From NCBI GenBank assembly GCA_949299195.1, contig CASFZN010000018.1, positions 352,149 through 416,148 on the forward strand: 64,000 nucleotides of DNA, in the 5' to 3' direction. How positions within the stretch are numbered: the stretch's first letter is position 1; every line of letters starts with the position of its first letter. The translations under genes were made by a program, and so were the position numbers. This document shows, one piece after another, positions 2,173-62,825 of the stretch. Origin of the DNA: an uncultured bacterium (GTDB lineage Bacteria; Bacillota_I; Bacilli_A; RFN20; CAG-826). The notes beneath the pieces were generated by a model, which ran no database searches, was not told where the DNA came from, and saw only the letters and a program-made list of their open reading frames with translations.

Positions 2173-2526
2173 ATGTTCTGTAGAAAATGTGGAAAAGAAG
2201 TAGCTGAAGACGTTAGATTTTGTCCAAATTGTGGCGAAGATCAATGGGAAGAAAGCGAAAAAGTAGAAGAAAAACCAGTAGAAATAAAGAAGGAAGAAAA
2301 ACAAGAATTAAGCGGTTTATTATTAGCTGCAAAAATCTTAATTATTATTTCAATGGTTCTTGCTTTCTGGGCAATTTATCCATTAGTTTTAGGTATTTTT
2401 GCTATTAAAGCAATTGAAAATAACAAAAATCCTAAAGATTTATTAACCTGGAGTATTGTTACTTTACTTTTACTTAATACTATTGCTGGAATTTTAATGC
2501 TTGTTTATTCTGTTAAAGATGAATAA
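2173..2526 (+). CDS. zinc-ribbon membrane protein, paralog 2 (tandem duplicate)
   Basis: MFCRKCGKEVAEDVRFCPNCG then TM helices; RBS agggag. Confidence 0.6.
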   Translation: MFCRKCGKEVAEDVRFCPNCGEDQWEESEKVEEKPVEIKKEEKQELSGLLLAAKILIIISMVLAFWAIYPLVLGIFAIKAIENNKNPKDLLTWSIVTLLLLNTIAGILMLVYSVKDE

Positions 2527-2881: not shown

Positions 2882-3340
2882 ATGAATAAAGAAACAACAA
2901 GTTTAAAGAAGGAAGAGATTGTCCGTAAATGGTATGTCGTTGACGCAACTAATCAACCTTTAGGTAGATTAGCTACTCAAATCGCTACTTATTTAATGGG
3001 AAAAGAAAAACCATCTTGGACACCAAACCAAGACTGTGGTGATTACATCATTGTAGTCAACTGTGATAAGGTTAAATTATCCAGTTCTAAGAAATTAGAA
3101 AACAAAAAATACTACAATGTTAGTGGTTATAACGGCGGTTTAAGAACAAGAAGTTTAGAGGTTATGCTTGAAAAATATCCTGAAGAAATGTTTAGAAGAG
3201 TCGTTTGGGGTATGATTCCAAAAGGCAGACTCGGAAGACAAATGATCAAAAAATTATTTGTTTACCGTGACGCTGAACATAAGCATGAAGCTCAAAAACC
3301 AGAGGTATTAACTTTCTCAAACTTAGGAGGTAAAAACTAA
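2882..3340 (+). CDS. rplM: 50S ribosomal protein L13
   Basis: '[21 protein letters not shown]', RBS ttaggagga; 152 aa. Confidence 0.95.
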
Positions 3341-3732
3341 TGGCTAAGAAAACTGCATTTTATGCAACTGGTAGAAGAAAATCCAGCATCGCAAAAGTCT
3401 ATTTAACAGAAGGCACAGGAAAAATTATTGTTAACGATAAAGATGTTAACGAATATTTCCCACACGCAACATTAGTCTTAGACTTAAAACAACCTCTTAC
3501 ATTATTAGGTGTTGAAGCTAAATATGATGTAAAAGCATACGTCCTTGGTGGCGGATTCTCCGGACAAACTGGTGCTTTAAGACTTGGTATTGCTAGAGCT
3601 TTACTCGAAGCTGGTGAAGATAGAGCAACCTTAAAAGTTCATGGTATGCTTACTCGTAACCCAAGAAGTAAAGAAAGAAAGAAATACGGTCTCAAAAAAG
3701 CAAGAAGAGCTCCTCAATTCTCAAAACGTTAA
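3340..3732 (+). CDS. rpsI: 30S ribosomal protein S9
   Basis: C-terminus '[25 protein letters not shown]'; TAATG stop/start overlap with rplM; RBS aggaggt. Confidence 0.95.
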
Positions 3733-21202: not shown

Positions 21203-22252
21203 ATGACAAGAAAATACGTTTTTGGTTCAATCGCATTAGTTTTTGCATTATTAGCTTTTGGATGTCTATTTTTACCTTTTTATAATGCATACTTTAATGG
21301 AACAATTGGAAATAATACCCTTGTAGGAAGTATTAATGTAAGTGGTATTGCTTTTGCGTTAGGATTATATGTTAGCGGAACTGTTGATTTTGCAAATAGA
21401 CAATTCACCGCATACATGCAACCATCAGTTTTAATCGTTGCAATCTTAATTATTTTAATCATTGCTGCTTGTATTATTTCAATTGCATATAAAAATAAAT
21501 TAACTTTCTTATTCTGTATTTTAAATGTAATTATTTCAGGCGTTAGTTTATTAGTTGCTATTTTAGCATTTACTTCAACCCTTCATATTAGTGTTTCTAG
21601 TATGCCTGGATTTATAAATGAAACTATGGGTGTAGGAGCAATATTATGTGGTATTTGCTTACTTATTACCTGCATATTTGCCGTTTTACTTACAGTATTC
21701 ACCTATTTTGAATATAAATTCCAAATCGAACAAATCAAAAGAAAAGAATTACTTGCTAATCCAGAACTTGCTGGCGTTTTAAGCAATATGTCTTATCTTC
21801 CTTTCTTTAATGTTAAAGTTGAAGATATCGATACCTCTTTCTTAACCAAGCAAAAGGATCAAGAAAATCAAAATATTGCTCAAATTGGACAATTAAGTGA
21901 TGAAGAAATTAAAAAAGCACAAAAATTAGATAAAGAAACTAATTTAGAAGCTCATGTTGTCCGTGCAGAAGAAGCACAAGTTGGAGAACCTAACTTAGAA
22001 GAAACAATTATTGCTGGATCATATGAAGAAGATTCCATTGAAGCTAAAGAAATGGAAACAAAAGAAAATAAAGAACAAGTTAATTCCTTCATCAAAACTG
22101 AAAGGGTTAATAGCGAAGATGCTGATCCAAAAACTAAATTTGAATCTAAATTAGACGAATTAAAGAAATTATATGATTCAGGAATTATCAGCGAAGAAGA
22201 ATATAATTCCTTAAAAGATAAGCTTTTAAGAGAATATTTCAGTTCTAAATAG
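21203..22252 (+). CDS. membrane protein with C-terminal SHOCT domain
   Basis: 5-6 N-terminal TM helices; C-terminus 'KLDELKKLYDSGIISEEEYNSLKDKLL' matches SHOCT motif; RBS gaaggagag. Confidence 0.6.
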   Translation: MTRKYVFGSIALVFALLAFGCLFLPFYNAYFNGTIGNNTLVGSINVSGIAFALGLYVSGTVDFANRQFTAYMQPSVLIVAILIILIIAACIISIAYKNKLTFLFCILNVIISGVSLLVAILAFTSTLHISVSSMPGFINETMGVGAILCGICLLITCIFAVLLTVFTYFEYKFQIEQIKRKELLANPELAGVLSNMSYLPFFNVKVEDIDTSFLTKQKDQENQNIAQIGQLSDEEIKKAQKLDKETNLEAHVVRAEEAQVGEPNLEETIIAGSYEEDSIEAKEMETKENKEQVNSFIKTERVNSEDADPKTKFESKLDELKKLYDSGIISEEEYNSLKDKLLREYFSSK

Positions 22253-25712: not shown

Positions 25713-28148
25713 CTATTTTTCAATTTCATCGATATAATCGACAATTTTTGATAAGGAAGTAATGGTTTCTTCTTTTCCATTATTAACAACTAATAATGTT
25801 GGAGCACTCATTACGTGATATTTAGAAACTAAATCTTCACTCTTAGATGCATCAATTTCTTCAAATTCAATGTTCTTTTCTTTAAAGATATCTTCAACCA
25901 TCTTACAGTTACTACATGTTGGAGTAACAAATAATTTATATTGGATGTTTCCATCTTTTGTATTATCGACATCTAATTTGACATCATGTTCAACACCTTT
26001 ATTTTCATTAAAGATAGGAGAAGAAGTTTTAATTTCTTCGATAGGTCCTTTATGTTTTAAAACTGAAGTATTGATGTTGTAAGTTTTTCTTTCTTTGAAT
26101 TCTTGGCTCTTACCAACATTCCAGTTTTGAACTGGGCGGTAATATCCAGTAATTCTAGAATAAACTTCAGTTTTTTGATGACAATGAGGACATTCATAGC
26201 GTTCACCAATTAAGTATCCATGTTCTTTACAAACAGAATATGTTGGAGACATGGTGTAATAAGGAAGTTTATAATTTTCAGCAATCTTTCTGACTAAATT
26301 AGCTGTTGCTTTCCAATCTGGTAATTTTTCACCTAAGAAGGTATGGAAAACAGTACCAGAGGTGTAAAGAGTTTGTAATCTATCTTGAATATCAAGGGCA
26401 CTAAAGACATCGTCAGTATAAGAAACTGGGAGGTGAGAAGAGTTGGTGTAATATGGTCTTCCATCTTCCATTCCGCTAGTAATAATATCTTTAAATCTTT
26501 CCTTATCATGTTTTGCTAATCTATAGGCTGTTGATTCAGCTGGAGTAGCTTCAAGGTTATATAAATCTCCGTATTCTTCTTGATATTTAACAAGTCTTTC
26601 TCTCATGTGATTTAAAACATTAACAGCAAAATCTTGAGCTTCTTTATGAGTTAAATCACATCTTAACCATTTAGCATTTAAACAGCATTCATTCATACCG
26701 ACAAGTCCAATAGTAGAGAAGTGGTTATTGAATGTTCCTAAATAGTGTTGAGTATAAGGATATAAGCCAGCCTCTAAGAGTTTAGTGATGACTTCTCTTT
26801 TCATCTTTAAGCTTCTTGCGGCAACATCCATTAAATGATCAAGTTTTTTATAGAACTCTTCTTCGTTATTAGATAAATATGCAAGTCTTGGTAAATTGAG
26901 CGTAACAACACCAACACTACCTGTAGATTCGCCACTTCCAAAGAAGCCGCCTGATTTCTTTCTTAATTCTCTTAAGTCGAGTCTTAATCTACAGCACATA
27001 CTTCTAACATCGCTTGGTTCCATATCACTATTGATATAGTTAGAGAAATATGGAGTTCCGTATTTAGCGGTCATTTCAAATAATAATTTATTATTTTCAG
27101 TTTCACTCCAGTCAAAATCTCTAGTAATAGAGTAAGTAGGAATTGGATATTGGAAGCCTCTGCCATTAGCGTCGCCTTCAATCATGGTTTCAATAAATGC
27201 TTTATTGACCATATCCATTTCTTTTTTACAATCCTTATATTTATAAGGCATAAGTTTTCCGCCAACAATACAGTATTCTTCTGCTAAATCTGGTGGAACA
27301 ACCCAGTCGAGGGTAATATTTGTAAATGGAGCTTGAGTTCCCCATCTAGATGGGATATTTAAACCAAAAACAAAGGATTCAATGCATTTTTTGGTTTCTT
27401 CATAAGTTAAGTTATCTTCTTTAACAAATGGAGCTAAATAGGTATCAAAAGAGGAGAATGCTTGAGCACCAGCCCATTCGTTTTGCATAATACCAAGGAA
27501 GTTAACCATTTGGTTACAAAGGGTTGATAAGTGTTTTGCTGGAGCACTAGTGATTTTACCTCTAACTCCGCCTAAACCTTCTTTAATTAATTGTTTTAAA
27601 CTCCAACCAGCACAATATCCACTTAACATTGATAAATCGTGTAAATGAATATCAGCATTACGGTGAGCGTTAGCAATTTCTTCGTCATAAACTTCATGTA
27701 ACCAGTAGTTTGCAGTAATTGCACCACTATTTGATAAAATTAAGCCACCAATTGAATATGTGACAGTTGAGTTTTCTTTAACTCTCCAGTCGATATTGTT
27801 TAAGTATTGGTCAACTGTTTTCTTATAGTCTAAAGTTGTTTCTTTAATATTTCTGATATTTTCGCGATTTTTTCTATATAAAATATAGCTTCTAGCAACA
27901 TCACTATAGCCAGCTTCCATTAAAGTTTCTTCAACTAAATCTTGGATTTGTTCAACTGTAATAAGTGAAGAATCGGTTTTAGTTGGGAATTTGGAAGTAA
28001 CTTTTAAAGCTAATAAATCGATAATATCTTCATCAACTCTACGATCTACTGATTCAAAAGCTTTTTTAATAGCATTACTGATTTTGTTAAGTTCAAAGTC
28101 AACAGTTTTGCCATCTCTTTTAACGACTTTAATCTTGGTATAGCTCAT
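25713..28148 (-). CDS. nrdD: anaerobic ribonucleoside-triphosphate reductase (class III) with N-terminal ATP-cone and extra C-terminal glutaredoxin/NrdH-like CxxC domain
   Basis: ATP-cone 'KVVKRDGKTVDFELNKI'; 'CCRLRLDLRELRKKSGGFFGSGESTGSVGVVTLNLPRLA'; Zn-site 'CKEHGYLIGERYECPHCH'; glycyl-radical 'SRITGYYRPV'; then 'LFVTPTCSNCKMVEDIF...VMSAPTLLVVNNG'; RBS aaaaaaggagaaatt. Confidence 0.9.
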   Translation of the reverse strand: MSYTKIKVVKRDGKTVDFELNKISNAIKKAFESVDRRVDEDIIDLLALKVTSKFPTKTDSSLITVEQIQDLVEETLMEAGYSDVARSYILYRKNRENIRNIKETTLDYKKTVDQYLNNIDWRVKENSTVTYSIGGLILSNSGAITANYWLHEVYDEEIANAHRNADIHLHDLSMLSGYCAGWSLKQLIKEGLGGVRGKITSAPAKHLSTLCNQMVNFLGIMQNEWAGAQAFSSFDTYLAPFVKEDNLTYEETKKCIESFVFGLNIPSRWGTQAPFTNITLDWVVPPDLAEEYCIVGGKLMPYKYKDCKKEMDMVNKAFIETMIEGDANGRGFQYPIPTYSITRDFDWSETENNKLLFEMTAKYGTPYFSNYINSDMEPSDVRSMCCRLRLDLRELRKKSGGFFGSGESTGSVGVVTLNLPRLAYLSNNEEEFYKKLDHLMDVAARSLKMKREVITKLLEAGLYPYTQHYLGTFNNHFSTIGLVGMNECCLNAKWLRCDLTHKEAQDFAVNVLNHMRERLVKYQEEYGDLYNLEATPAESTAYRLAKHDKERFKDIITSGMEDGRPYYTNSSHLPVSYTDDVFSALDIQDRLQTLYTSGTVFHTFLGEKLPDWKATANLVRKIAENYKLPYYTMSPTYSVCKEHGYLIGERYECPHCHQKTEVYSRITGYYRPVQNWNVGKSQEFKERKTYNINTSVLKHKGPIEEIKTSSPIFNENKGVEHDVKLDVDNTKDGNIQYKLFVTPTCSNCKMVEDIFKEKNIEFEEIDASKSEDLVSKYHVMSAPTLLVVNNGKEETITSLSKIVDYIDEIEK

Positions 28149-28232: not shown

Positions 28233-28937
28233 TTAATCAATGCCTCTTAATTCACACGGAATTGAGTATTCATCAATAACGATTCTTTTAAATTCTTCTA
28301 AGATTTCTTTATTCCGTGAAGAATATCCCTCTTTGACGATATTAAATTCATTCTTTTTGAATTGTTGGAGGAAATATCTTTTACTTCCTTTTAACAATTC
28401 TCCAATTTTTCTAATATCTCCATGACTATGTAATTCCTTAACGATAGTGGTTCTAAATTCATAGTCGATATCGCTATTTTTAATATATTCTATTGAGGAA
28501 GTGATGTTTTTGATGCCGATTTCATTTAATCCAACTGTAGTATGATATTTTTCTAAAGAGTTTTTAATATCCATAGCGATATAATCAACAAGTTTTAGAT
28601 CAATAATCTCTTTTAATTTGGAAAACAAGTAGCCGTTGGTATCTAACTTAACTTTATATCCTAATTCTTTAACTTTTTTTATAAATGGAATTAGATCTTT
28701 TTGAAGTAAAGGCTCTCCTCCAGTGATACAGATTCCATCCAATAAACCAACTCTTTTCTTTAAAAAGTCTAAGATTTCACTTTCATCAATGATTTCGTTA
28801 TTAGAGGGAGCTATAACGAGTGACGAATTGTGACAATATGGACATCTAAAGTTACAACCGTTAGTAAAGAAGGTAGCAGCTGTATATCCTGGAAAGTCTA
28901 ATAAAGTTAATTTTTGATAACCTACAATTTCAATCAT
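28233..28937 (-). CDS. nrdG: anaerobic ribonucleotide reductase activating protein (radical SAM)
   Basis: 'FPGYTAATFFTNGCNFRCPYCHN' CxxxCxxC; 'ITGGEPLLQ'; immediately upstream of nrdD on the same strand. Confidence 0.85.
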   Translation of the reverse strand: MIEIVGYQKLTLLDFPGYTAATFFTNGCNFRCPYCHNSSLVIAPSNNEIIDESEILDFLKKRVGLLDGICITGGEPLLQKDLIPFIKKVKELGYKVKLDTNGYLFSKLKEIIDLKLVDYIAMDIKNSLEKYHTTVGLNEIGIKNITSSIEYIKNSDIDYEFRTTIVKELHSHGDIRKIGELLKGSKRYFLQQFKKNEFNIVKEGYSSRNKEILEEFKRIVIDEYSIPCELRGID

Positions 28938-29522: not shown

Positions 29523-30206
29523 ATGAGCTGGGATAATTTTTTTAATAGCATAAAGACTAAAGATTACTATCAAGAATTAATGAAATTTATTGATAAAGAA
29601 TATTTAGAGAATGTTTGCTATCCTCCAAAAGAGTTGATTTTTAATGCGTTTAAACTAGTAGATCCTAAGGATATTAAGGTAATAATCATTGGTCAAGATC
29701 CATATATTCATAAAGGAGAAGCTATGGGTTTAGCCTTTAGTGTAAATGAAGGAATTAAACTCCCCCCATCTTTAAGAAACATCTATAAAGAAATAGAAAA
29801 TGAATTTAATATAGCTATGGATTATAATTCAGGGGATTTAACTTATTTAGCTAAACAAGGAGTCTTCTTAATTAATCCAATTTTAACGGTTAGAGAAGGT
29901 AAATCCTTATCTCATAATAACGCCTTATACCAAGAATTATTTAAAGATTTATTCGAGTATATCGATACTTTTTTAACTCAACCTCTAGTAATAATGTTAT
30001 GGGGAAATAAGGCTAAAGAATATAAAAAATATATTACAAATAAAAATAAAAATATGCTTGTTTTAGAATCTTCTCATCCGTCTCCATTAAGTGCAAATCA
30101 AGGAGGTTGGTTCAATTCAGGAATATTTATTAAAACTAATGAATATTTAGAAAAAAATAATATTAAAAAGATTTCATGGGCTAACTCCATCTTTCATCTT
30201 GACTAA
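29523..30206 (+). CDS. ung: uracil-DNA glycosylase (family 1)
   Basis: 'IIGQDPYIH', 'HPSPLSA'; N-terminus 'MSWDNFF...DYYQEL'; ORF-track TTG start at 29472 lies in the tRNA terminator and is rejected. Confidence 0.85.
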   Translation: MSWDNFFNSIKTKDYYQELMKFIDKEYLENVCYPPKELIFNAFKLVDPKDIKVIIIGQDPYIHKGEAMGLAFSVNEGIKLPPSLRNIYKEIENEFNIAMDYNSGDLTYLAKQGVFLINPILTVREGKSLSHNNALYQELFKDLFEYIDTFLTQPLVIMLWGNKAKEYKKYITNKNKNMLVLESSHPSPLSANQGGWFNSGIFIKTNEYLEKNNIKKISWANSIFHLD

Positions 30207-30235
30207 TCTTAATCTATAATTATTTTTGTAGATAA

Positions 30236-30330
30236 AGTTATGGGGGCTTGTGATACAGGCTGAGATAAAAGTAGTTACTTTTGACCATTTAACCTGATCT
30301 AGGTAATTCTAGCGTAGGTAAAACTCTTTT
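30236..30330 (+). promoter_or_regulatory. TPP (thiamine pyrophosphate) riboswitch aptamer
   Basis: tgGGGGcttgtgataCAGGCTGAGAtaaa...ttgACCatttAACCTGATCTaGGtAATtCtAGCGTAGGtAAaa matches the THI-element consensus (CUGAGA, ACCUGAUCU, AGCGUAGG). Confidence 0.8.
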
Positions 30331-30379
30331 TTATTGGATAAAACTAATTAAATAGTAGTCCTTAAAAATAATTAAAGAA

Positions 30380-30415
30380 TTAACTACCTAAGAATTATCA
30401 GGTAGTTTTATTTTT
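30380..30415 (+). terminator. candidate riboswitch expression-platform terminator
   Basis: ttAACTACCTaagaattatcAGGTAGTTttatttttc between aptamer and RBS aggaggg. Confidence 0.45.
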
Positions 30416-30444
30416 CTTTAATTTAATTTAGGAGGGATATATTT

Positions 30445-31569
30445 ATGATAGATGAAATTAAAAAAGAAAATGATATTACTGATAATTCTTCGACAACAGT
30501 ATCGAATAAAAAGTTTGATATTTATCGAGGAATTATAGGAATAGTTTTACTATTGGCAACTTACATATTTTTAGTTACTGATGGTTTTACGCTTTCAACT
30601 TTAAATGAAGAAGAAGTCACTCTTTCTTTATTTGATGCAATATTTGGAAATAGTGAATTAAAAATAGGATTAAATCCAATTGGATTAACTAGTTTTATTT
30701 TAATTTCTTGTGCAACTTTGTTATTTATTGTTGGATTTATTTTTAAAATAATAGGAAATAAAAAAGCATCAAACAGCTTATTTATTTCTTCATCAATTAC
30801 ATTATTTCTAGGATATATTTTCTATTTAGCAATTATTTATACATTTTATTATGTAGTTCCAGGAGCTAGTGAGATTATACCTTCTGAATATGGGATATAT
30901 TTTGTTACTCCATCAATGATAATTTATTCGGTAATTATCGCAATTTCTTTAATTATGATTTTAGCTTCTATTGAAAGAAAAGATGGCAGTAAATTTAAGG
31001 TAAAAGAGATTTCAGAATTAGCAATGATGGTTGCTTTAGCAATAGTTTTAGATCAATTTGTAAAAATTCCAATTGGTTCTACCGGAGGAAGTATTAACTT
31101 TTCCGCTTTTCCTTTAATGATATATGGGATTAGACATGGCTTTCTTAAAGGAATATTAGCTAGTTCAATCATTTTTGGAATTATTACGAATTTAATAGAT
31201 GGTTATGGTCTTTTATGTTATCCATTTGACTATTTAATTGCCTTTTTAGGATATGGGTCTAGTGGCTTATTCTATTACATTTTTAAGTCCACTATTTTTA
31301 AGAATAAATCGAGCGAAAATGACAATTTAATTTTGATTATTATCTCTTTAATTTTAGGAGCAATCACCTTATTTATTATAAGAATGATTGGTTCAACCAT
31401 GTCTTCGATGATTCTTTGGGAATATGAACTTGGCGCTGCTTTACTTTATAACATTTTATATGTTGGTCCTAGTGCCTTGGGATGTTTAGTAATTTCATTA
31501 CTTTTATCTCCTGTTATCAATATGATTAATAAAAGGCAAAAAACTTCTTATTTAGAAAAATTAGCATAA
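30445..31569 (+). CDS. TPP-riboswitch-controlled polytopic membrane protein; C-terminal half resembles an ECF-transporter S-component (ThiT-like), putative thiamine/precursor transporter
   Basis: 374 aa, about 10 TM helices; second half 'MMVALAIVLDQFVKIPIGSTGGSINFSAFPLMIYGIRHGFLKGILAS' S-component-like; directly downstream of riboswitch. Confidence 0.5.
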   Translation: MIDEIKKENDITDNSSTTVSNKKFDIYRGIIGIVLLLATYIFLVTDGFTLSTLNEEEVTLSLFDAIFGNSELKIGLNPIGLTSFILISCATLLFIVGFIFKIIGNKKASNSLFISSSITLFLGYIFYLAIIYTFYYVVPGASEIIPSEYGIYFVTPSMIIYSVIIAISLIMILASIERKDGSKFKVKEISELAMMVALAIVLDQFVKIPIGSTGGSINFSAFPLMIYGIRHGFLKGILASSIIFGIITNLIDGYGLLCYPFDYLIAFLGYGSSGLFYYIFKSTIFKNKSSENDNLILIIISLILGAITLFIIRMIGSTMSSMILWEYELGAALLYNILYVGPSALGCLVISLLLSPVINMINKRQKTSYLEKLA

Positions 31570-31743
31570 TTACCCCTTTTATAAATAAAAGATAAAATGC
31601 GATATTTATCGCATTTTTTCTTTATATAAAAACAAGTTAAAATGCTTTATAATTATATGGGTACGATTTTCTTTTAATATTTAATTAATAAATATTAAAG
31701 AAATGTAGAAAAAGTATTGATTTCTCTAGGAGGTAGTTAAAAA

Positions 31744-38129: not shown

Positions 38130-38729
38130 ATGTTTTTAGACAAATTACGAACTGCAGTTAAATCCAAAAAGATATCAATTTTCACAGTAGTAGGAATCAT
38201 TATTTCTACTTTTTCATCATTAAATAAACTTTTTATTTTATATAATAGCTTCGCGGTTTATCTTTGTTTTTTCAATATTTTACTAATTATTACTAAAATC
38301 GAATGTATCTATGGAATTATTGATAACGATAACGAAGCTTTATATTATGCTAGAAATATTGTTAATGGAATTTTAGTTTTATGCGCTGGAATTTCTTTTG
38401 TAATTTATACCGTTATTGTCTTAATTTTTAGGGCATACCACGAAGAATATACTCGATTTGAAGGCCTTTATTTAGCTACTTTAGCATTTGTAGAAATCGT
38501 TATTGCTATTATCTTTTTTGTTAAAGATCGCCAAAAATCTCATTATTTAAAAACAATGAGGATTTCTAATCTTTTGTTGGCCTTTTCTGCTTTATTAACT
38601 GCTCAAATTTCGATTCTTTCTTTTACTGGAAATGATAGTTATTTAGGAAGTATTATTTTTGGAATGGTAATAGGAATTTCTTCGATTGGATGCGGGATTT
38701 ATATTATTTTATCCCTAAATATGGATTAA
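38130..38729 (+). CDS. hypothetical polytopic membrane protein
   Basis: 199-aa ORF, 5-6 TM helices. Confidence 0.4.
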   Translation: MFLDKLRTAVKSKKISIFTVVGIIISTFSSLNKLFILYNSFAVYLCFFNILLIITKIECIYGIIDNDNEALYYARNIVNGILVLCAGISFVIYTVIVLIFRAYHEEYTRFEGLYLATLAFVEIVIAIIFFVKDRQKSHYLKTMRISNLLLAFSALLTAQISILSFTGNDSYLGSIIFGMVIGISSIGCGIYIILSLNMD

Positions 38730-39091
38730 TTAACCATGATTATAATAAGTTTAAATTAGTAGACCCTTCTTTAAATAAAATTATAGATTTTGGTGAAGAA
38801 CAAAGAGTACATCGACTTCCTTTAAAAAGAGGTAAATTATCATATACTTTTTATTATGAATATATGGTAGATGTTGATAAAAAAGAAATTGAAGGCATTA
38901 TTATTAAAGAAAGCGTTTGGTTTAAAAAACTTAATATTTATATCAAAATATTGATTTACTTTTTTATTTTTATGCGGATTATTCCCTTTATAATTCTTCA
39001 TATTGCTTTAGGAGTAAGAAGAATTAATTTACATAAAAAACTCGAAGCCTTGATGAAGGAAAATGGCTTCGAGTTAATAGAATATAATTAA
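38690..39091 (+). CDS. hypothetical protein with C-terminal TM region (overlaps previous gene by 40 nt; doubtful)
   Basis: only in-frame start is ATG at 38690 inside the upstream gene; 133 aa. Confidence 0.25.
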   Translation: MRDLYYFIPKYGLINHDYNKFKLVDPSLNKIIDFGEEQRVHRLPLKRGKLSYTFYYEYMVDVDKKEIEGIIIKESVWFKKLNIYIKILIYFFIFMRIIPFIILHIALGVRRINLHKKLEALMKENGFELIEYN

Positions 39092-41432: not shown

Positions 41433-43570
41433 ATGAATTTAAAAACCTTACTCAACGATAAACAATACGAAGCTGTAACTTCTTCATTTAAATATAATAG
41501 AATTATAGCTGGAGCAGGAAGTGGTAAAACCCGTGTTTTAACCTACCGTCTTGCACATTTAATTAATGATAAAAATATTGATCCTTATAACCTTTTAGCA
41601 ATTACTTTTACTAATAAAGTTGCAAAAGAAATGTTAAATAGAACCGAAGAATTACTCGGAAACATCGATATTAGTAGTTTAAAAATATCTACCTTCCACT
41701 CTTTTTGTAGTTATTTTTTAAGAAACGAAATCTATCACATCAACTTTCCTAGATCTTTTGTAATTATTGATGATAATGAAAGTGAAAACATGATTTATTA
41801 TTCCTTTACTAGTTTAGGTCATGAGATTAAAAAAGGAGATACCTTAGTTAAATCCACCATTAGATTTATTGCTAAAAATAAAACTAAAGGCCTTCTTCCT
41901 AGCGATATCAAAGAAGAAGATTTAGTTAGTGAAGAAATGAAAATCATGTATGAAGCTTTTAAAGAATATGAAAAAAATAAAGTTAGAAGTTATGCTTTAG
42001 ATTTTGATGATTTACTTATTTATACCGCAATATTTTAAGAGAATTTAGTGACGTAAAAGAAAAATATAATACTCGCTTTAAAGAGATTTTAGTCGATGAA
42101 TTCCAAGATACAAACGATTTACAGTTTAAACTTTTAACTCTTTTAGTAGGAAAAGACACAGGGCTTTATGTTGTAGGAGATCCTGATCAAACTATCTATA
42201 CCTGGAGAGGCGCTAATTTAAGAGTTATTTTAGATGTAGAAAAATATTTTAGGGGCTTACAAACTTTTATTTTAGACGAAAACTATCGTTCAACTAAAAA
42301 TATTTTAACCGCTGCTAATAAGCTTATTATTCATAATGCTGAAAGGGTAAAAAAAGATTTATTTACTAAAAACGAAAGTCGAGAAGAAGTAAGCTTTTTT
42401 ACAGCCCAAACTGATTTTGAAGAAGCTAGAAAAGTCGTTCAAAAAATACGTGAATTAACTGTAAAAAACGATGCAAAATATTCGGAAATTGCCATTCTTT
42501 ATCGATCGGCATATCTTTCTCGTCCTTTCGAACAAATTTTAATGAAAGAAAGAATTCCATATCGCGTTTATTCAGGAACAAAATTCTATGATAGAAGAGA
42601 AGTTAAAGATGTTTTAGCCTATCTTTCTTTATTAACTAATCCCAAAAACGATGTAGCTTTTGAAAGAGTTTATAACGTTCCTAAAAGAGGAATTGGAGAT
42701 GTTTCGTATGCAAAATTTAAACAAGAAGCATATGAATTAAACTTAAATTTATATCAATACGCTTTAGATTTATATAAATATGATTCTGAGGTTAGTAAAA
42801 AATCTCAAAATGCCTTATCTACCTTTGTTTTAAAATTAGAAAAAGCTAATGATTTACTTGAAGGAGAACACACTTCTCAAGAATTTTCTGGCATAATGCT
42901 CGACTTTTTAAATGACATTAAATATTTTGACTATCTTCAAGAAAATGAAGAAGATGGCGATGATAGAGCTTTAAACGTCAGATCTTTAATTAGCGATATT
43001 GCTAATACAGTAACTGGAAAAAATGCGATAAGTATCGAAGAATATTTACAAAACGTTACTTTATTAACTTCTCAAGATGATATTGTTAATGATGGTGATT
43101 CAATCACTTTAATGACCTGCCATACTGCTAAGGGTTTAGAGTTTAACTATGTTTTCGTAGTTGGATTAAATAAAGATGTTTTCCCAAATTATCGTGCTCT
43201 TCAAGAAGGAAAAGAAAGAGAAGAGGAAGAAAGAAGATTAGCCTATGTTGCCTTTACTCGTGCTAGAAAAATACTCTATTTATCTTGTAATTTAGGGCAT
43301 TCATTTATTAGTGGCACCACTAATGAAGTTTCTCAATTTGTTATTGAAGCCGGATTATCGCTTAAACCTAAAAACTCCTTTATCAAGGTAGGAAAAGAAA
43401 ATTTATATTCTTTCGATTTTAATAAATTTATGGAGGAAAAGAAAAAAATCGAAGAAGAAGAGCGAAAAGAAAGAGTTATAGGAACTTCATTTAAAAATAA
43501 TATAAAATGGAGTGTAGGCGATTTGATAAATCATAAAACTTTTGGAAAAGGAAAAATCAATAAATTATAA
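41433..43570 (+). pseudogene. UvrD/PcrA-type helicase paralog (pcrA-1) disrupted by a -1 frameshift in the T4 run at 42033-42036
   Basis: N-terminal 201 aa with 'IAGAGSGKTRVLTYR', stop at 42036; frame +2 continues 'REFSDVKEKYNTRFKEILVDEFQDTN...VVGDPDQTIYTWRGAN...ENYRST...TCHTAKGLEF...LAYVAFTRARK'; colinear and about 65-70% identical to intact pcrA at 50515. Confidence 0.7.
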
Positions 43571-50393: not shown

Positions 50394-50514
50394 TTATTTT
50401 AAAAACCATTAATTATTAATATAAAATAAGATAACTTTTTATTACTAAATTTATACTAAAAAAGTTATTAGATTTAATATAAATAACAACCTAAATTTGA
50501 TAAAATATTTAGGT

Positions 50515-52731
50515 ATGAATTTTGAACGAGAACTAAATGATAAACAATATCTTGCAGTAACAACGAAAGAAAAATATAACCGTATAATTGCTGGTGCAGG
50601 TAGTGGAAAAACTAGAGTATTAACATATCGATTGGCCTATTTATTAGAAAAAAGAAATATTGACCCATTTAATCTTTTAGCGATTACTTTTACAAATAAA
50701 GCTGCTAAAGAGATGAAAAATAGAACAATTGATTTATTACCAACTTATAATTTAAAAAACTTACAGATTTCAACTTTTCATTCTTTCTGTAATTATTTAT
50801 TAAGAAGAGAAATTAAAGTTTTGGGATTTCCACAATCTTTTTCGATTTTAGATGAAAGCGATACCGAATTATTATTAAAAAATATTGCCGAAGAGCTAGG
50901 ATATGAAAAAAACGGACCAACTTTTGATTATGCTTTAAAATTTATAAGTGCAAGCAAAACAAAAGGGAAACTACCTGGTGATATAAAGGAAGAATTTTTG
51001 AATGATTTATCAAAAAAAGCTTTAACAATGTTTAAAGAATATGAAAAAAGAAAGAACGAACAATTCTCTTTAGATTTTGATGATTTACTCATATATACAG
51101 TACTGATTTTATCTTCTTACCCTAATATAAAAGAAAAATATAATAATCGATTTAAAGAAATCTTGGTTGATGAATTTCAAGATACAAATGATATTCAATT
51201 TAAATTATTAACTTTACTTGCTGGAGAAAATACATCTATTTATGTAGTTGGTGATCCTGATCAAACAATTTATACTTGGAGAGGAGCTAATCAAAAAGTT
51301 ATTTTAGATTTTGATAAATATTTTTCTCCGCTTAACACAATAATATTAAACGAAAATTATCGTTCAACAAGCGCTATTTTAAATGTTGCAAATACTTTGA
51401 TTGCTAAAAATGTCGAAAGGGTAAAAAAAGATTTATTTACAAATAATTCTAAAGGTGTTGATGTAATTTGCCATGAAGAATTTTCTGATCAAGAAGAAGC
51501 TAGGTGGGTAGTAAAGAAAATAAACGATTTAAAAAAGATTAAAAACGTAAAATTAAAAGATATCGTTATTTTATATAGAAGTTCATATATTTCAAAAACA
51601 TTTGAAAAAGTCTTGATGGAAAATAGAATTTCTTATCGAGTATATGGCGGGCTTAAATTCTATGATAGAAAAGAAATTAAAGATTCTTTGGCTTATTTTT
51701 ATTTATTATTAAATGATTTAGATGACATTTCCTTTTTAAGAATCGTAAATGTTCCTCGTAGAAGTATAGGAGATGTATCATTATCAACGCTCAAAAAAGA
51801 AGCTAGAAATGAAAATTTATCATTATATAAATATTCTAAAGATATAGATAAATATAATTCATTACTTTCGCCACGTGTTAAAAACTCGCTGTTTAATTTA
51901 GTGCAAATTATTGAAGAATATAAAATAAAAGTTAATGATAAAAATATATCTTATTCAGAAGTCTTAGATGCTTATTTAAAAAAGCTTGGCTATTATGATT
52001 ATTTAATTAATGATGATGATTCGGACGGGGAAAGAATTGCTAACGTTAAAACATTAATTGATGATATTCGAACTTATTTAAAAGAAAATCCTGAATCTTC
52101 TTTAGATGAATATATGCAAAATATTACTTTATTAACTTCTCAAGATGCGATAATTGATAACGAAAACACTTTAACTTTAATGACTGTACATACAGCAAAA
52201 GGTTTAGAGTTTGATTATGTTTTTGTTGTTGGGTTTGAAGATACAGTGTTCCCTTCTTATAAATCTGTTTCTGAAAACGGCAATAAAGGATTAGAAGAAG
52301 AAAGAAGGCTTGCCTATGTTGCTTTTACAAGGGCTAAAAAAGAATTATATATAACTTATAATAAGGGATATTCTTATATTGCAAAAACTTCACACATTCC
52401 TTCAAGATTTATTAAAGAATCTGGAATATATAGCATTGATTCAAGTTTTGAAAGAGATTTAAAACGTTATGATTCTTCATCAACTGTTTATAAAATTAAT
52501 TTTAATAGCAAAGAATCTTCTAGAAGAGTAAGTGAAGGAAGAAATTCAACTATTATTTCTTATCAAGTTAATAAAAATAATAATTGGGCGGTAGGCGATA
52601 ATTTAACTCATGATGCTTTTGGAGAAGGAAAAGTAATCGGTACTGATGGAGACGTCATTATTGTTGATTTTGCAAATTTCGGTGTTAAAAAAATGCTGGC
52701 TACACATCATATGTTGCATAAAAAGGAATAA
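50515..52731 (+). CDS. pcrA: ATP-dependent DNA helicase PcrA (intact)
   Basis: 'IAGAGSGKTRVLTYR', 'VDEFQDTND', 'VVGDPDQTIYTWRGA', 'ENYRST', 'TVHTAKGLEF', 'LAYVAFTRAKK'; followed by ligA as in Bacillus; start chosen by alignment with paralog (MNFERELNDKQY). Confidence 0.9.
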   Translation: MNFERELNDKQYLAVTTKEKYNRIIAGAGSGKTRVLTYRLAYLLEKRNIDPFNLLAITFTNKAAKEMKNRTIDLLPTYNLKNLQISTFHSFCNYLLRREIKVLGFPQSFSILDESDTELLLKNIAEELGYEKNGPTFDYALKFISASKTKGKLPGDIKEEFLNDLSKKALTMFKEYEKRKNEQFSLDFDDLLIYTVLILSSYPNIKEKYNNRFKEILVDEFQDTNDIQFKLLTLLAGENTSIYVVGDPDQTIYTWRGANQKVILDFDKYFSPLNTIILNENYRSTSAILNVANTLIAKNVERVKKDLFTNNSKGVDVICHEEFSDQEEARWVVKKINDLKKIKNVKLKDIVILYRSSYISKTFEKVLMENRISYRVYGGLKFYDRKEIKDSLAYFYLLLNDLDDISFLRIVNVPRRSIGDVSLSTLKKEARNENLSLYKYSKDIDKYNSLLSPRVKNSLFNLVQIIEEYKIKVNDKNISYSEVLDAYLKKLGYYDYLINDDDSDGERIANVKTLIDDIRTYLKENPESSLDEYMQNITLLTSQDAIIDNENTLTLMTVHTAKGLEFDYVFVVGFEDTVFPSYKSVSENGNKGLEEERRLAYVAFTRAKKELYITYNKGYSYIAKTSHIPSRFIKESGIYSIDSSFERDLKRYDSSSTVYKINFNSKESSRRVSEGRNSTIISYQVNKNNNWAVGDNLTHDAFGEGKVIGTDGDVIIVDFANFGVKKMLATHHMLHKKE

Positions 52732-60669: not shown

Positions 60670-60781
60670 CATATTAAAAACACGATAATTATCGATAAAA
60701 TTTTAAATTTTCAAAAGAATTTTAAAAAAAGTTGAATAATTTTTCAATTTAAAACGTTCTTGTATAGTGAAAGGGGAAATT

Positions 60782-62821
60782 ATGATTGAGGTTAAAAATG
60801 TAAAAAAAGTATATCCATTATCAAACAAGAACGAACTTATATTAAATAAGGTTAGTTTTCTTTTGCCAGATAAAGGTATTTATTTTATTCTTGGTAAAAG
60901 TGGAAGTGGAAAATCTACTTTATTAAACCTTATTTTAGGTATTGAAAGACCAGATGAAGGATATATAAAAATAGATGGAAGAAGAATTGATAATTTGAGC
61001 GATGAAGGTAAAGAAATGTTTTATAAAAATAAGATTTCTATATTATTCCAAAACTTCAATTTAATAAACGATCTTACTGTAAAAGAAAATTTAAATCTAA
61101 CTATTTCAATCAAAAATATGTATATTGATCTAAAGGGTGAATATATCAAAAAATTACTGATTAAATTCAAACTTATAGATAAATTAAATCAAAAAACTTA
61201 TTTACTTTCAGGCGGAGAAAAGCAAAGATTAGCCTTAATTCGTGCTTTAATTAATAATCCAAGTATTATTTTGGCTGATGAACCAACAGGAGCTTTAGAT
61301 AAAGAAAATCAAAAAATAATTTTAGATGAACTTAAAAAATTATCAGAAGATAAACTTATTTTAATTGTCACTCATAATAAAGAATTGGTTGATAAATACG
61401 GAGATGGATATTTATTAATTAAAGAAAAATCGGTAAAAATTCATAATATTGATCAAAATATTGAACTTAAAAGAACTAAAAAAGATAAAAGGAAGAAAAG
61501 GTTAAGTTTTTATTTTTCTTTACTTAAAAGAAACTTGTTTAGCAATGTTTCTAAAAATATTTTCACCGTTATTTCCTTATCTTTTACTCTTTTATTATCG
61601 TTTTTTACATTTAATTTTTACTTATCTATTAACGATATAAATGAAGGATTAATCTATGATTTTCCTTCTTATAATATTTTTAGTGTTTCAAAAGTTTATA
61701 ACACTTCTATAAATGGTTCTTCTTTATCTATAGAAAGGAAGGAAGATATAGATAGTAATGAATTTATGTCTTTTTTAAATGAAAACGAAATTGAAAGATT
61801 TTCATTATTAGAAAATTATTCCTACTTTTTAAATAATAATCGAACTATAAAAATTAACGATATTGAATTAGAAAGTGTTACATTTTTACCATCTTTTGAT
61901 GTTAAAAATGGAGAAGTGATCGTTAATGAAGCTTTTATTGATAAATATTTAATTCCTAATAATTTTCTTTTAGAAAACATCTTAAATGAAGGAATTGAAC
62001 TTAACGTATCTTCTTTTAATGAATATATTTCTTTTAGCAATATCACTAACACTGAAGTGAGCGAAAATCTGGATATAAATATCAACTTTTTAATTAAACA
62101 TGTATCTAAGGAGTTTTCATATCTTTCAACTCCTAGAGTCTATTATAGCTATGACTTTTTTGAAAGATATTTATTGGACAAAAATACGACAACCATCTCA
62201 CTTTTAGAAGGAAATAGCGTAAGTTATTTTGATTTAGTTAATCGCGCAAAAGAAAATGATTCAATAACATCTTTTTCTTCATATCTTTTACTTCATGATG
62301 AAGAAACTTATTTAAAAGTAGTAAGGCTAATAAACGAAAATACTTTTAAAAAGAATTATTTTGATTTATCAAACGATTCTTTAACTATTATCAATTCATT
62401 TAATGACATTATTAACATTTTATTTGTCGCTCTTAATTTCTTTATTGTAATTATTGCATTAACTTCGATATTTATCATATTTTCAATCACTTTTTATAAT
62501 TATTTATCTCATAAAAAAGAACGCGCAATTTTAAAAGTCTTAGGAAGTAATGAAGCTTCTATTAATCTAGTTTATATCTTTGAAGTTATCATTCTTTATC
62601 TATTATCTTTTATTATTTCATATCTGATTTATAGCAATATAAATCAAAAACTCTTTAATTTGGTCTCAAAGGAAGTAGGAATAACTCTTTTTTGTTCTCA
62701 ACATCCTTTTTTATATATACTTATATTCCTAGTTTTATTAATTATTACTTGCCTAACGACATATCTTCCTTTGAGACTATCTAAGAAAAATAAGGTTGTC
62801 AACGAGTTAAAGGAGGAATAG
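60782..62821 (+). CDS. fused ABC transporter ATP-binding / FtsX-like permease protein (MacB/YtrEF-type)
   Basis: Walker A 'GKSGSGKSTLLN', signature 'LSGGEKQRLALIRAL', Walker B 'ILADEPTGALD'; C-terminal 4 TM helices; RBS gaaaggggaaattATG. Confidence 0.75.
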   Translation: MIEVKNVKKVYPLSNKNELILNKVSFLLPDKGIYFILGKSGSGKSTLLNLILGIERPDEGYIKIDGRRIDNLSDEGKEMFYKNKISILFQNFNLINDLTVKENLNLTISIKNMYIDLKGEYIKKLLIKFKLIDKLNQKTYLLSGGEKQRLALIRALINNPSIILADEPTGALDKENQKIILDELKKLSEDKLILIVTHNKELVDKYGDGYLLIKEKSVKIHNIDQNIELKRTKKDKRKKRLSFYFSLLKRNLFSNVSKNIFTVISLSFTLLLSFFTFNFYLSINDINEGLIYDFPSYNIFSVSKVYNTSINGSSLSIERKEDIDSNEFMSFLNENEIERFSLLENYSYFLNNNRTIKINDIELESVTFLPSFDVKNGEVIVNEAFIDKYLIPNNFLLENILNEGIELNVSSFNEYISFSNITNTEVSENLDININFLIKHVSKEFSYLSTPRVYYSYDFFERYLLDKNTTTISLLEGNSVSYFDLVNRAKENDSITSFSSYLLLHDEETYLKVVRLINENTFKKNYFDLSNDSLTIINSFNDIINILFVALNFFIVIIALTSIFIIFSITFYNYLSHKKERAILKVLGSNEASINLVYIFEVIILYLLSFIISYLIYSNINQKLFNLVSKEVGITLFCSQHPFLYILIFLVLLIITCLTTYLPLRLSKKNKVVNELKEE

Positions 62822-62825
62822 TGAG

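Follow-up and report, generated by a model that had tools for sequence, protein, structure and literature searches.

The DNA analysed here, which we call the window, is a single stretch of 64 kb. The locus of interest is a riboswitch leader followed by one gene, and a related module is encoded upstream on the same strand. The features are listed below with the evidence for each.

21203-22252, + strand: paralogous 4-TM module joined through an acidic linker to SHOCT at the C-terminus (hmmsearch, Pfam)
30199-30226, + strand: promoter-like site, TTGACT, 16-nt spacer, TATTTT (9 of 12 matches)
30230-30338, + strand: TPP riboswitch aptamer, or THI element (Rfam RF00059 match)
30302-30320, + strand: predicted 5' strand of the antiterminator, the 3' part of aptamer helix P4/P5 (ViennaRNA)
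30381-30419, + strand: intrinsic terminator; its 5' arm together with the loop doubles as the antiterminator's 3' strand (sequence, folding)
30430-30435, + strand: Shine-Dalgarno AGGAGG, 9 nt 5' of the ATG at 30445 (read from sequence)
30445-31569, + strand: ORF of 374 aa, tetraspan domain plus ThiT-like S-component (ORF call)
30445-30981, + strand: N-terminal domain, residues 1-179, predicted claudin/TARP-like tetraspan fold (AlphaFold, hydropathy)
30976-30999, + strand: K-rich cytoplasmic linker ERKDGSKF, residues about 178-185, from TM4 to helix 1 of the S-component (alignment)
31000-31536, + strand: ThiT-like ECF S-component, residues about 186-364 (PF09515, profile and fold matches)
31594-31627, + strand: intrinsic terminator 3' of the gene, with a 10-bp stem, a 4-nt loop and a T-run (terminator scan)

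The gene is monocistronic, since the intrinsic terminator at 31594-31627 ends it. A protein 99% identical to its product (P0001) is encoded on metagenome contigs. We believe the locus is best explained as a monocistronic thiamine-uptake gene under the control of a TPP riboswitch, encoding a ThiT-type S-component with a tetraspan accessory domain in cis, and we consider this explanation as a whole quite probable.

The riboswitch leader

An earlier sequence-only reading of this DNA had proposed a conserved TPP aptamer, a terminator-like hairpin at 30380-30415 and a strong RBS ahead of the gene. All three are present. The Rfam scan matches RF00059 at 67.8 bits, above the gathering score of 54.3 (E = 3.4e-11), and covers model positions 1-105 in full. 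The aptamer core consists of CUGAGA at 30261-30266 and ACCUGAUCUAGGUAAUUCUAGCGUAGG at 30293-30319. The terminator stem pairs AACUACCU (30382-30389) with AGGUAGUU (30400-30407) across a loop of 10 nt, and the U-run UUAUUUUUCUUU (30408-30419) lies directly 3' of it. Our terminator scanner allows loops of up to 8 nt, so it left this + strand hairpin uncalled and made a call on the - strand only. The AGGAGG listed above is the RBS.

The core motif of the aptamer lies upstream in 69 of 77 related loci, and three of the other eight are recognised as TPP by Rfam (L023 at 59.9, L029 at 64.4 and L046 at 49.8 bits). The first regular expression missed 11 loci; two of these pass the Rfam gathering threshold, and the five of the remaining nine that were run again with Rfam at an E-value threshold score 49.6-51.3 bits. 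These five are real aptamers that fall slightly under the Rfam cut-off. Compensatory changes occur in P3 and P5 among the homologous aptamers upstream of related genes. With 50 aptamers from related loci compared, double changes are found in 10 of 16 predicted pairs, and the base pairs of P3 have 23-26 compensatory changes each. Judged on sequence, the TPP riboswitch is genuine, and TPP binding and repression are predicted. In Firmicutes the example is thiT of L. lactis, which has a TPP riboswitch (RF00059) upstream (PMC8862789). The two leaders share the aptamer family, the position of a TPP-sensing leader before a thiamine S-component gene and a terminator-type platform. Nothing essential sets this one apart from the thiT riboswitches; its P3 stem is short and AU-rich, and several relatives are the low scorers just described.

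We predict that the riboswitch is an OFF switch acting through transcription termination. ViennaRNA pairs 30302-30320 with 30381-30399 in an antiterminator of 17 pairs (computed cofold energy -15.3 kcal/mol), and in the computation this structure and the terminator at 30382-30419 are mutually exclusive. With TPP bound, 30302-30320 would be held in aptamer helices P4/P5, the terminator (30382-30407 and the U-run) would form, and transcription would halt 5' of the RBS. With TPP absent, 30302-30320 would pair with 30381-30399 and the gene would be read through. The promoter-like site at 30199-30226 may start the transcript just 5' of the aptamer. It overlaps the end of ung, and such sites are fewer in this region than in its shuffles.

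The ThiT-like domain, its substrate and its coupling

The sequence-only reading described a protein of double length that resembles ThiT or an ECF S-component in its C-terminal half only. The profiles bear this out. Pfam Thia_YuaJ (PF09515) scores 53.7 bits against a gathering score of 25.8 and is confined to residues 190-359. The NCBIfam ThiT equivalog, TIGR02357, scores 44.8 bits, far under its cut-off of 108.45, so we call the domain ThiT-like and treat it as a divergent subfamily and not as the equivalog. Structures of ThiT in the PDB are reached by the family profile (4tkr at E = 3.2e-10, 3rlb at E = 4.4e-8) and not by the single sequence. A phmmer search of the PDB with the single sequence gave neither ThiT nor anything else significant; MOSMO, which we take to be itself a claudin-like tetraspan, appeared faintly at E = 0.3. 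Foldseek on the predicted structure finds the six-helix S-component fold, placing ThiT 4tkr and 3rlb on top and then RibU, FolT and BioY, with probability 1.00 and a TM normalised by target of 0.60-0.72.

The known ThiT/YuaJ proteins (PF09515; 3RLB, 4TKR; group II ECF) share with this domain the six-helix fold, an AxxxA-type helix 1, control by a TPP riboswitch and a gene unlinked to ecfAA'T (here, across the 64-kb window). This protein differs from them in the fused N-terminal 4-TM domain that makes it twice as long, and in falling under the NCBIfam equivalog cut-off. The thiamine contacts named for ThiT are Trp34, Glu84, His125 and Trp133 (PMC5037267). We placed them by HMM alignment in 57 sequences. 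The acidic residue is kept, with D262 at the Glu84 position (D in 52, E in 5), and so is the aromatic one, with W325 at the Trp133 position (Y, W or F in 57/57). The lid residue Trp34 aligns to the invariant S216, loop 1 carrying an invariant GGS in its place, and the His125 position holds S317, a column that is His in 15 of 57 and mostly Ser.

We take thiamine as the substrate from the riboswitch and the family resemblance, because the Trp34 and His125 contacts are not conserved. The C-terminal domain would import thiamine or a near relative of it among the pyrimidine-containing vitamers. Some other TPP-regulon compound might be the substrate instead, for example HMP, a precursor of the thiazole, a thiamine phosphate or an analogue. 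This seems unlikely to us, though some points speak for it. The two residues that sandwich the thiazole in L. lactis ThiT, Trp34 and His125, are the ones replaced here, by the GGS and in most members by Ser, while the acidic and aromatic residues that contact the pyrimidine are kept (PMC5037267), and the TIGR02357 score is under the cut-off. Against these points, ThiT is the best family match by both sequence and fold, and alignments of loops are unreliable at such divergence. Small-genome gut Bacilli also typically salvage intact thiamine, as is generally known. We continue to favor thiamine or its close relative.

S-components are seen as freely diffusing small six-helix proteins, which compete for a single energizing module and deliver their vitamin by toppling in the membrane. 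No EcfA or EcfT gene is present in the 64-kb window, as the sequence-only reading had said of the adjacent genes; the only ABC ATPases in the window, at 60767-63998, are of a fused FtsX/MacB type. The evidence on coupling comes from helix 1, where the small-xxx-small motif is A193/A197, aligned to Ala15/Ala19 of L. lactis ThiT. The first column holds A 36, G 14 and S 7 in 57 sequences, and the second A 48, G 5 and S 4. The AxxxA motif in helix 1 of S-components is needed for EcfT binding (PMC11109136). Since the motif is kept, the ThiT domain probably still works with a shared ECF module whose genes lie elsewhere, and docking on such an EcfAA'T module is the most likely arrangement on this sequence evidence.

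One could argue that the protein works independently of ECF, with the tetraspan either replacing the module, which would make the S-domain a solitary facilitator, or anchoring the S-domain so that it does not topple on EcfT. Solitary facilitators have been reported for some BioY proteins, and the window lacks an ECF module. The fusion is also specific to ThiT among the long matches with an identified C-terminal half, and the short linker puts the tetraspan right beside helix 1, the helix that docks on EcfT. We nevertheless think this improbable. A docking motif that is small at both positions in 57/57 sequences would be needless without EcfT, and the short-form relatives keep the same invariant residues as the long forms. 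Nearly all Bacilli have an ECF module, and its genes usually lie at a distance from the S genes. A shared module elsewhere in the genome remains our preferred reading.

The N-terminal tetraspan domain

The N-terminal half had been described as a 5-TM domain, but hydropathy and AlphaFold agree on four helices, which the model places at 15-43, 78-103, 106-137 and 156-174/177. The model is confident (pLDDT 86.3, pTM 0.82) and has extracellular beta strands at 46-51, 57-61 and about 151-154. An N-in/C-in topology is consistent with the K- and R-rich segments, which lie ahead of TM1, between TM2 and TM3 and behind TM4. In the linker that follows, residues 179-181 have pLDDT <50.

Neither Pfam nor NCBIfam has a match to this half. 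Foldseek does place it, and the best 50 matches listed are all claudin, TARP, MP20, LHFPL, GSG1L, Cav-gamma or LetA. Over its full length the domain is best matched by structures of the claudin/TARP-type superfamily (Foldseek E about 1e-2, TM about 0.5, identity 10-14%). With the eukaryotic claudin, PMP22, MP20, TARP, LHFPL and Cav-gamma proteins the domain shares four TM helices, the N-in/C-in topology, a long TM3, a large first extracellular loop made of beta strands and a short helix, and a second loop that adds a strand. It differs from them in being bacterial, in having no significant sequence similarity and no signature residues, and in being fused to its presumed partner. Pfam PMP22_Claudin and Claudin_2 do not match the domain encoded in the window, and the W-GLW-C-C claudin signature is absent, with neither Trp nor Cys in loop 1 (residues 44-77). 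For these reasons we claim the same fold only and not the same family. At the fold level the domain appears to be a bacterial claudin/TARP-like tetraspan, and common ancestry is a possibility. We searched the literature on prokaryotic claudin-like proteins and found nothing relevant.

LetA, which is among the fold matches, comes from a different setting. The TM domains of LetA in E. coli LetAB (9N8W/9N8X) form a pseudodimer with zinc ribbons and an MCE lipid tunnel as partner (PMC13017536). In contrast to LetA, which is PqiA-like and Gram-negative, the N-domain has no sequence or Pfam PqiA match and is found in Bacilli in the context of vitamin uptake.

The sequence-only reading had suggested that the extra half might be a second substrate-binding module or a T-like module. 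It is true that a polytopic membrane domain is fused to an S-component and that no ECF genes adjoin, and either a duplicated S module or a coupling module of the EcfT kind would yield a more self-contained transporter. The data make this very improbable. Compared with the S-component profile by hhalign, the N-domain gives a probability of 1.4% over 8 aligned columns, and it has four TM helices against the six of the S fold, so we reject a duplicated S-component. We also reject an EcfT-like module (CbiQ, PF02361). The N-terminal half has no Pfam match to CbiQ/EcfT or to an S-component, EcfT is absent among the top fold matches listed, which are claudin, TARP, MP20 and LHFPL tetraspans, and the AlphaFold model lacks the long cytoplasmic coupling helices. 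In our opinion the tetraspan is an accessory domain in cis and neither a second binding site nor an energy coupler. It would act as an accessory or scaffold that stabilises, clusters or caps the S-component or tunes its docking. Mean pairwise identity is 18% in the N-domain against 44% in the ThiT domain, and conservation this weak gives no pointer to a specific function.

The 4-TM module also occurs outside the fusion. Stand-alone homologues are complete genes of 156-203 aa. Ten of them run against Pfam gave sub-threshold noise only (Claudin_2, Trep_Strep at 26.9 bits, SUR7), and the best claudin score, P0053 against Claudin_2, is 23.2 bits where the cut-off is 29.1. In the neighbourhoods of three stand-alone homologues no partner gene recurs, and nothing links them to a transporter. 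Within the window, the product of 21203-22252 matches nearly the whole N-domain profile over residues about 4-162 (hmmsearch, E = 6.6e-10) and carries SHOCT PF09851 at 37.4 bits. Long matches to the N-domain profile that have an identified C-terminal half are all Thia_YuaJ; P0030 has no S-component match and P0026 was left unscanned.

The fusion and what it may mean

The sequence-only reading took the two halves to be a fusion, and we looked for the alternative, a separate gene with its own internal start and RBS. We found no suitable in-frame start 5' of the ThiT domain within the 374-aa ORF. M172 has no evident SD upstream, and M194/195 follows the invariant E191 and is already within helix 1. 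About 65 related loci, which come from distinct MAGs of gut Bacilli and represent some 60 species, have one continuous ORF, and the frame is also continuous in two other strains (L001/L002 and L083). The N-extension in these fused loci has four TM helices and sometimes five. The two halves do not occur as separate genes in any related locus. At every related locus that bears an aptamer the riboswitch is upstream of the N-domain, and here the RBS too is 5' of it. The 374-aa protein is a true fusion.

On a rival view, the N-terminal half belongs to a separate gene upstream or comes from faulty annotation or assembly, the real product being an ordinary ThiT of ~190 aa. This view can appeal to the usual S-component size of ~180-220 aa and to short forms in the subfamily (P0009-P0011, P0015 and loci L024, L032, L033, L037, L044 and L079), but it is hardly credible and we reject it, given a frame unbroken here, in those two strains and in about 65 other species, a riboswitch and RBS that precede the N-domain and not the ThiT domain, the lack of a suitable internal start, and a confidently folding N-domain.

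The riboswitch and the ThiT domain are ordinary. The domain architecture is what is new, an undescribed fusion; in the literature we found no description of an S-component with an extra TM domain or an N-terminal extension of this kind. In a clade of gut Bacilli, a further domain of four helices is permanently joined to helix 1, which docks on EcfT, in a protein type thought to move freely. This raises a mechanistic question, which is whether toppling and docking tolerate the tetraspan as a load or are regulated by it. With this finding, a Gram-positive family that occurs stand-alone as well as fused joins the very recent evidence from LetA (PMC13017536) of a prokaryotic claudin/TARP-type fold.

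A bolder reading can be drawn from the eukaryotic proteins. Many claudin/TARP-type tetraspans serve channels or receptors as auxiliary subunits, a use that parallels the attachment of the N-domain to a transporter subunit. The N-domain could then be a bacterial member of the claudin/TARP superfamily that serves as a built-in auxiliary subunit of the S-component, controlling docking on EcfAA'T, competition for it or release from it, or capping the binding site by means of the extracellular beta-sheet. We regard this as speculative and rather doubtful. If true, it would be the first tetraspan-superfamily domain regulating a prokaryotic transporter, and the auxiliary-subunit use of the fold, known from TARPs, Cav-gamma and LHFPL, would be older than the eukaryotes.

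There is also a practical consequence for annotation. Since the N-terminal half is without a family annotation and the protein falls under the ThiT equivalog cut-off, thiamine uptake is possibly under-called in uncultured gut Bacilli.

The TPP riboswitch and the gene behind it

The gene under study and its control signals are arranged as follows.
30230-30338, plus strand: TPP riboswitch aptamer (RF00059)
30382-30389 and 30400-30407, plus strand: terminator hairpin, stem AACUACCU / AGGUAGUU with a 10-nt loop, then UUAUUUUUCUUU
30430-30435, plus strand: Shine-Dalgarno AGGAGG, 9 nt ahead of the ATG at 30445
30445-31569, plus strand: ORF of 374 aa in a single continuous frame
31594-31617, plus strand: second, clean terminator 3' of the gene (pattern scan)

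The sequence-only reading called a TPP riboswitch, a terminator-like hairpin, a strong ribosome-binding site and a double-length gene here, and all of these are confirmed. RF00059 covers its whole model at 67.8 bits (E = 3.4e-11) in an Rfam cmscan of the window, against a gathering score of 54.3. At gathering thresholds it is the sole riboswitch in the 64-kb window; the remaining four Rfam matches are tRNAs. The pattern scanner gave the leader hairpin only on the minus strand, since the plus-strand loop exceeds its 8-nt limit. The second terminator makes the gene monocistronic.

The aptamer is paired with a predicted terminator/antiterminator platform. When the leader is folded without the 5' half of the aptamer, the 3' side of helices P4/P5 (30302-30320) pairs with the 5' arm and loop of the terminator (30381-30399) in a 17-pair alternative helix with a cofold energy of -15.3 kcal/mol. 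This antiterminator and the terminator are mutually exclusive by computation. When the aptamer is folded, the minimum-energy structure of the whole leader contains it together with the terminator at -41.4 kcal/mol, and forcing the antiterminator gives -36.3 kcal/mol. The computed layout is of the classical Firmicute type: with TPP bound the aptamer would be folded, the terminator would form, and the gene would be off.

A clade of gut Bacilli keeps both the riboswitch and the architecture. When GTDB species representatives were scanned with the protein family, 80 loci were found, nearly all of them on MAGs of uncultured gut 'Bacilli', 'Mollicutes', Candidatus Onthovivens or Candidatus Alloenteromonas. 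Among the 77 loci with sufficient upstream sequence, 69 carry the TPP core motif ahead of the gene. Of the eight without it, three do score as TPP with Rfam (L023 at 59.9, L029 at 64.4 and L046 at 49.8 bits), and four more loci, missed by a first, stricter motif pattern, fall just under the gathering score (49.6-51.3 bits, E about 1e-7 to 1e-6). When 50 of the related aptamers are aligned, double compensatory changes occur at 10 of the 16 predicted pairs, with 23-26 compensatory sequences per pair in P3. The gene upstream of the related loci is often ung, the same as in the window, which suggests vertical inheritance. The loci L018, L046, L050, L055 and L062 have clear TPP aptamers upstream of thiT that standard annotation would overlook, scoring 49.6-51.3 bits against the gathering score of 54.3.

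The ThiT-like domain and its presumed energizing module

A TPP riboswitch ahead of thiT is textbook (e.g. PMC8862789). The regulated transporter is ordinary; it is the domain architecture that is new. As first proposed, only the C-terminal half resembles ThiT and the ECF S-components: residues 190-359 score 53.7 bits against the Pfam family Thia_YuaJ, whose gathering score is 25.8, and other S-component Pfam families match this half more weakly. The NCBIfam ThiT equivalog model gives only 44.8 bits, far below its cut-off of 108.45; the subfamily is divergent. A profile of 57 family members matches the ThiT crystal structures 4TKR (3.2e-10) and 3RLB (4.4e-8). In Foldseek the full-length AlphaFold model (pLDDT 81, pTM 0.67) comes closest to ThiT 4tkr and 3rlb, then to RibU, FolT, BioY and PanT.

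A structural survey of S-component-fold proteins states that S-components bind EcfT through a helix-1 AxxxA motif, and that mutating the motif abolishes ThiT transport (PMC11109136). In all 57 sequences the columns of A193 and A197, the counterparts of Ala15 and Ala19 in L. lactis ThiT, hold A, G or S, so the EcfT-docking motif is retained. Four thiamine contacts are listed for ThiT: Trp34, Glu84, His125 and Trp133 (PMC5037267). In our alignment Glu84 corresponds to D262, a column that is always D or E, and Trp133 to a position that is always aromatic. Trp34 is replaced by the invariant Ser of a GGS motif, and His125 mostly by Ser. The pocket thus seems conserved on its pyrimidine side and differs on its thiazole side. 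We label the domain 'ThiT-like', and the riboswitch and the family resemblance point to thiamine or a close vitamer as the substrate.

The S-component probably relies on a shared EcfAA'T module encoded elsewhere, since none is found within the window and the ABC ATPases at 60767-63998 are of the FtsX/MacB type. The earlier statement that no ECF A/T genes are adjacent is thus correct. In many Firmicutes an ecfA-ecfA'-ecfT-truA cluster lies upstream of rplM-rpsI. Here rplM-rpsI (2882-3732, plus strand) lacks that cluster upstream and has zinc-ribbon genes in its place, so the ECF module, if present, is elsewhere.

The N-terminal tetraspan domain

A single ORF fuses a tetraspan of predicted claudin fold to the ThiT-like S-component. 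The N-domain (residues 1-179) was first read as having five transmembrane helices, but hydropathy and AlphaFold both give four: 15-43, 78-103, 106-137 and 156-177. In about 65 loci one continuous ORF includes an N-extension, 150-230 residues long, with four such helices, apart from a few variants with five, one extra helix lying at the N-terminus. The extra helix gives five before the S-domain in L018, L023, L028, L029 and L030 (about 405-420 aa) and in protein P0026, and would place their N-terminus outside the cell.

By computation the two domains form a true fusion, and the proposal of a fusion stands. The alternative is a separate gene with its own internal start and ribosome-binding site. 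The N-domain profile finds the module on the ThiT ORF in every one of the roughly 65 loci, and never as a separate neighbouring gene in them. The riboswitch and ribosome-binding site precede the N-domain. There is no suitably placed in-frame start ahead of the ThiT domain: M172 has no evident upstream Shine-Dalgarno sequence, and M194/195 lie inside helix 1, beyond the invariant E191.

The suggestion that the N-terminal half is a second substrate-binding or T-like module fails. An hhalign comparison of the N-domain and S-domain profiles gives a probability of 1.4%, and the N-domain has neither a CbiQ nor an S-family Pfam match.

Modelled by AlphaFold from 26 sequences, residues 1-179 give a confident structure (pLDDT 86.3, pTM 0.82). 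In it TM1 leads into a first loop with two beta strands and one short helix; TM2 follows, then a cytoplasmic turn of two residues, a long TM3, a second loop with one strand, and TM4. The best 50 Foldseek matches listed from the PDB are claudin-superfamily proteins or LetA only; they include MP20, TARP gamma-2/3/5/7/8, LHFPL4/5, Cav gamma-1, claudin-3/15, GSG1L and E. coli LetA. Probabilities reach 1.00, with TM-scores of about 0.5 and modest E-values of about 1e-2. The K/R-rich N-terminus, TM2-TM3 turn and post-TM4 linker fit an N-in/C-in topology, which is required because the N-domain feeds into S-component helix 1. The modelled domain thus has a claudin-like fold. The window's N-domain has no Pfam hit, and its loop 1, which lacks both Trp and Cys, does not carry the W-GLW-C-C signature. 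Since there is no sequence-level claudin membership, our claim is 'same fold', not homology.

The claudin/TARP-type fold was recently shown in prokaryotes through LetA; according to the authors of that work, the superfamily had been regarded as an innovation of eukaryotes (PMC13017536). The family described here is a distinct example: Gram-positive, single-domain, and stand-alone or fused. We found no description in the searchable literature of an S-component with an extra polytopic domain of this kind. The S-component survey describes fusions mainly to signalling domains, and a term search of it found nothing like a tetraspan-S-component (PMC11109136).

An exhaustive search of 1.84 billion representative proteins with the N-domain profile gave 43 matches at E <= 1e-3. 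About 23 of these are long ThiT fusions, six of them already found in the earlier protein search. Among 16 of the other long matches scanned with Pfam, 15 have Thia_YuaJ at the C-terminus and P0030 does not; P0026 (420 aa), judged by its sequence, carries the same conserved ThiT-domain residues. The remaining matches are mostly stand-alone proteins of 156-203 aa that match the whole profile, along with four shorter proteins (80-125 aa) and P0023 (228 aa), which has one extra N-terminal helix. All of these remaining proteins share LFxP where TM1 ends, GFxxxFGG in the first loop, a TM2-TM3 turn rich in K, and LGxG within TM4. Of the stand-alone members, three are complete genes, and around these no recurrent neighbours were seen. 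In one match, P0049, a SHOCT domain precedes the module. The window itself holds a paralogue.
21203-22252, plus strand: 349-aa protein that begins with the module (hmmsearch E = 6.6e-10 over nearly the full profile), continues in a long acidic linker and ends in a SHOCT domain
The source genome therefore uses the module in at least two architectures. In the fusion proteins, mean pairwise identity is 18% for the N-domain versus 44% for the ThiT domain, so the N-domain evolves much the faster of the two. This spread and fast evolution are more in keeping with a structural or accessory module than with a specific ligand-binding site. The tetraspan may be an in-cis accessory domain that stabilises, clusters or caps the S-domain, or tunes its docking.

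The source organism and other genes in the window

The window has a G+C content of 26.8%. Its 54 complete large ORFs end in TAA (48) or TAG (6), never TGA, and none is interrupted by an in-frame TGA, so TGA seems almost unused rather than reassigned. Metagenome scaffolds such as ERZ16268174 scaffold_217 are 99.5% identical over the overlap, and ERZ16268187 scaffold_1 carries a member of the gene's 90%-identity protein cluster. The nearest species representatives in the GTDB scan reach only about 42% identity in the 374-aa protein, so the exact species appears to be absent from them.

Tandem genes at 1758-2138 and 2173-2526 (plus strand) encode small proteins of 126 and 117 aa; in both, an N-terminal zinc ribbon precedes transmembrane segments. 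They match the N-domain profile weakly and partially, in its TM2-TM3 part (E = 3e-5 and 3e-3 in a window-sized search), and give sub-threshold Tetraspanin and Claudin_2 Pfam hints. The arrangement recalls the zinc ribbon and tetraspan-like transmembrane domain of LetA; the likeness may be compositional.

NrdD, the anaerobic ribonucleotide reductase (25713-28148, minus strand, 811 aa), ends in a glutaredoxin/thioredoxin-like extension that contains a CSNC motif and has weak Thioredoxin and Glutaredoxin Pfam hits in the precomputed annotation; the NrdG activase adjoins it at 28233-28937. A UvrD/PcrA-like helicase gene (41433-43570, plus strand) is frameshifted near 42040, where frame 3 continues in frame 2, and is a pseudogene or a sequencing error; an intact PcrA-like gene lies at 50497-52731, upstream of ligA and gatCAB. 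Two overlapping ORFs of 199 and 133 aa at 38130-39091 (plus strand) correspond to one 320-aa gene in L001, a 99.5%-identical metagenome scaffold. The split is probably a frameshift difference between strains or assemblies, and the alignment of the window with L001 has 6 gap openings over 21 kb.
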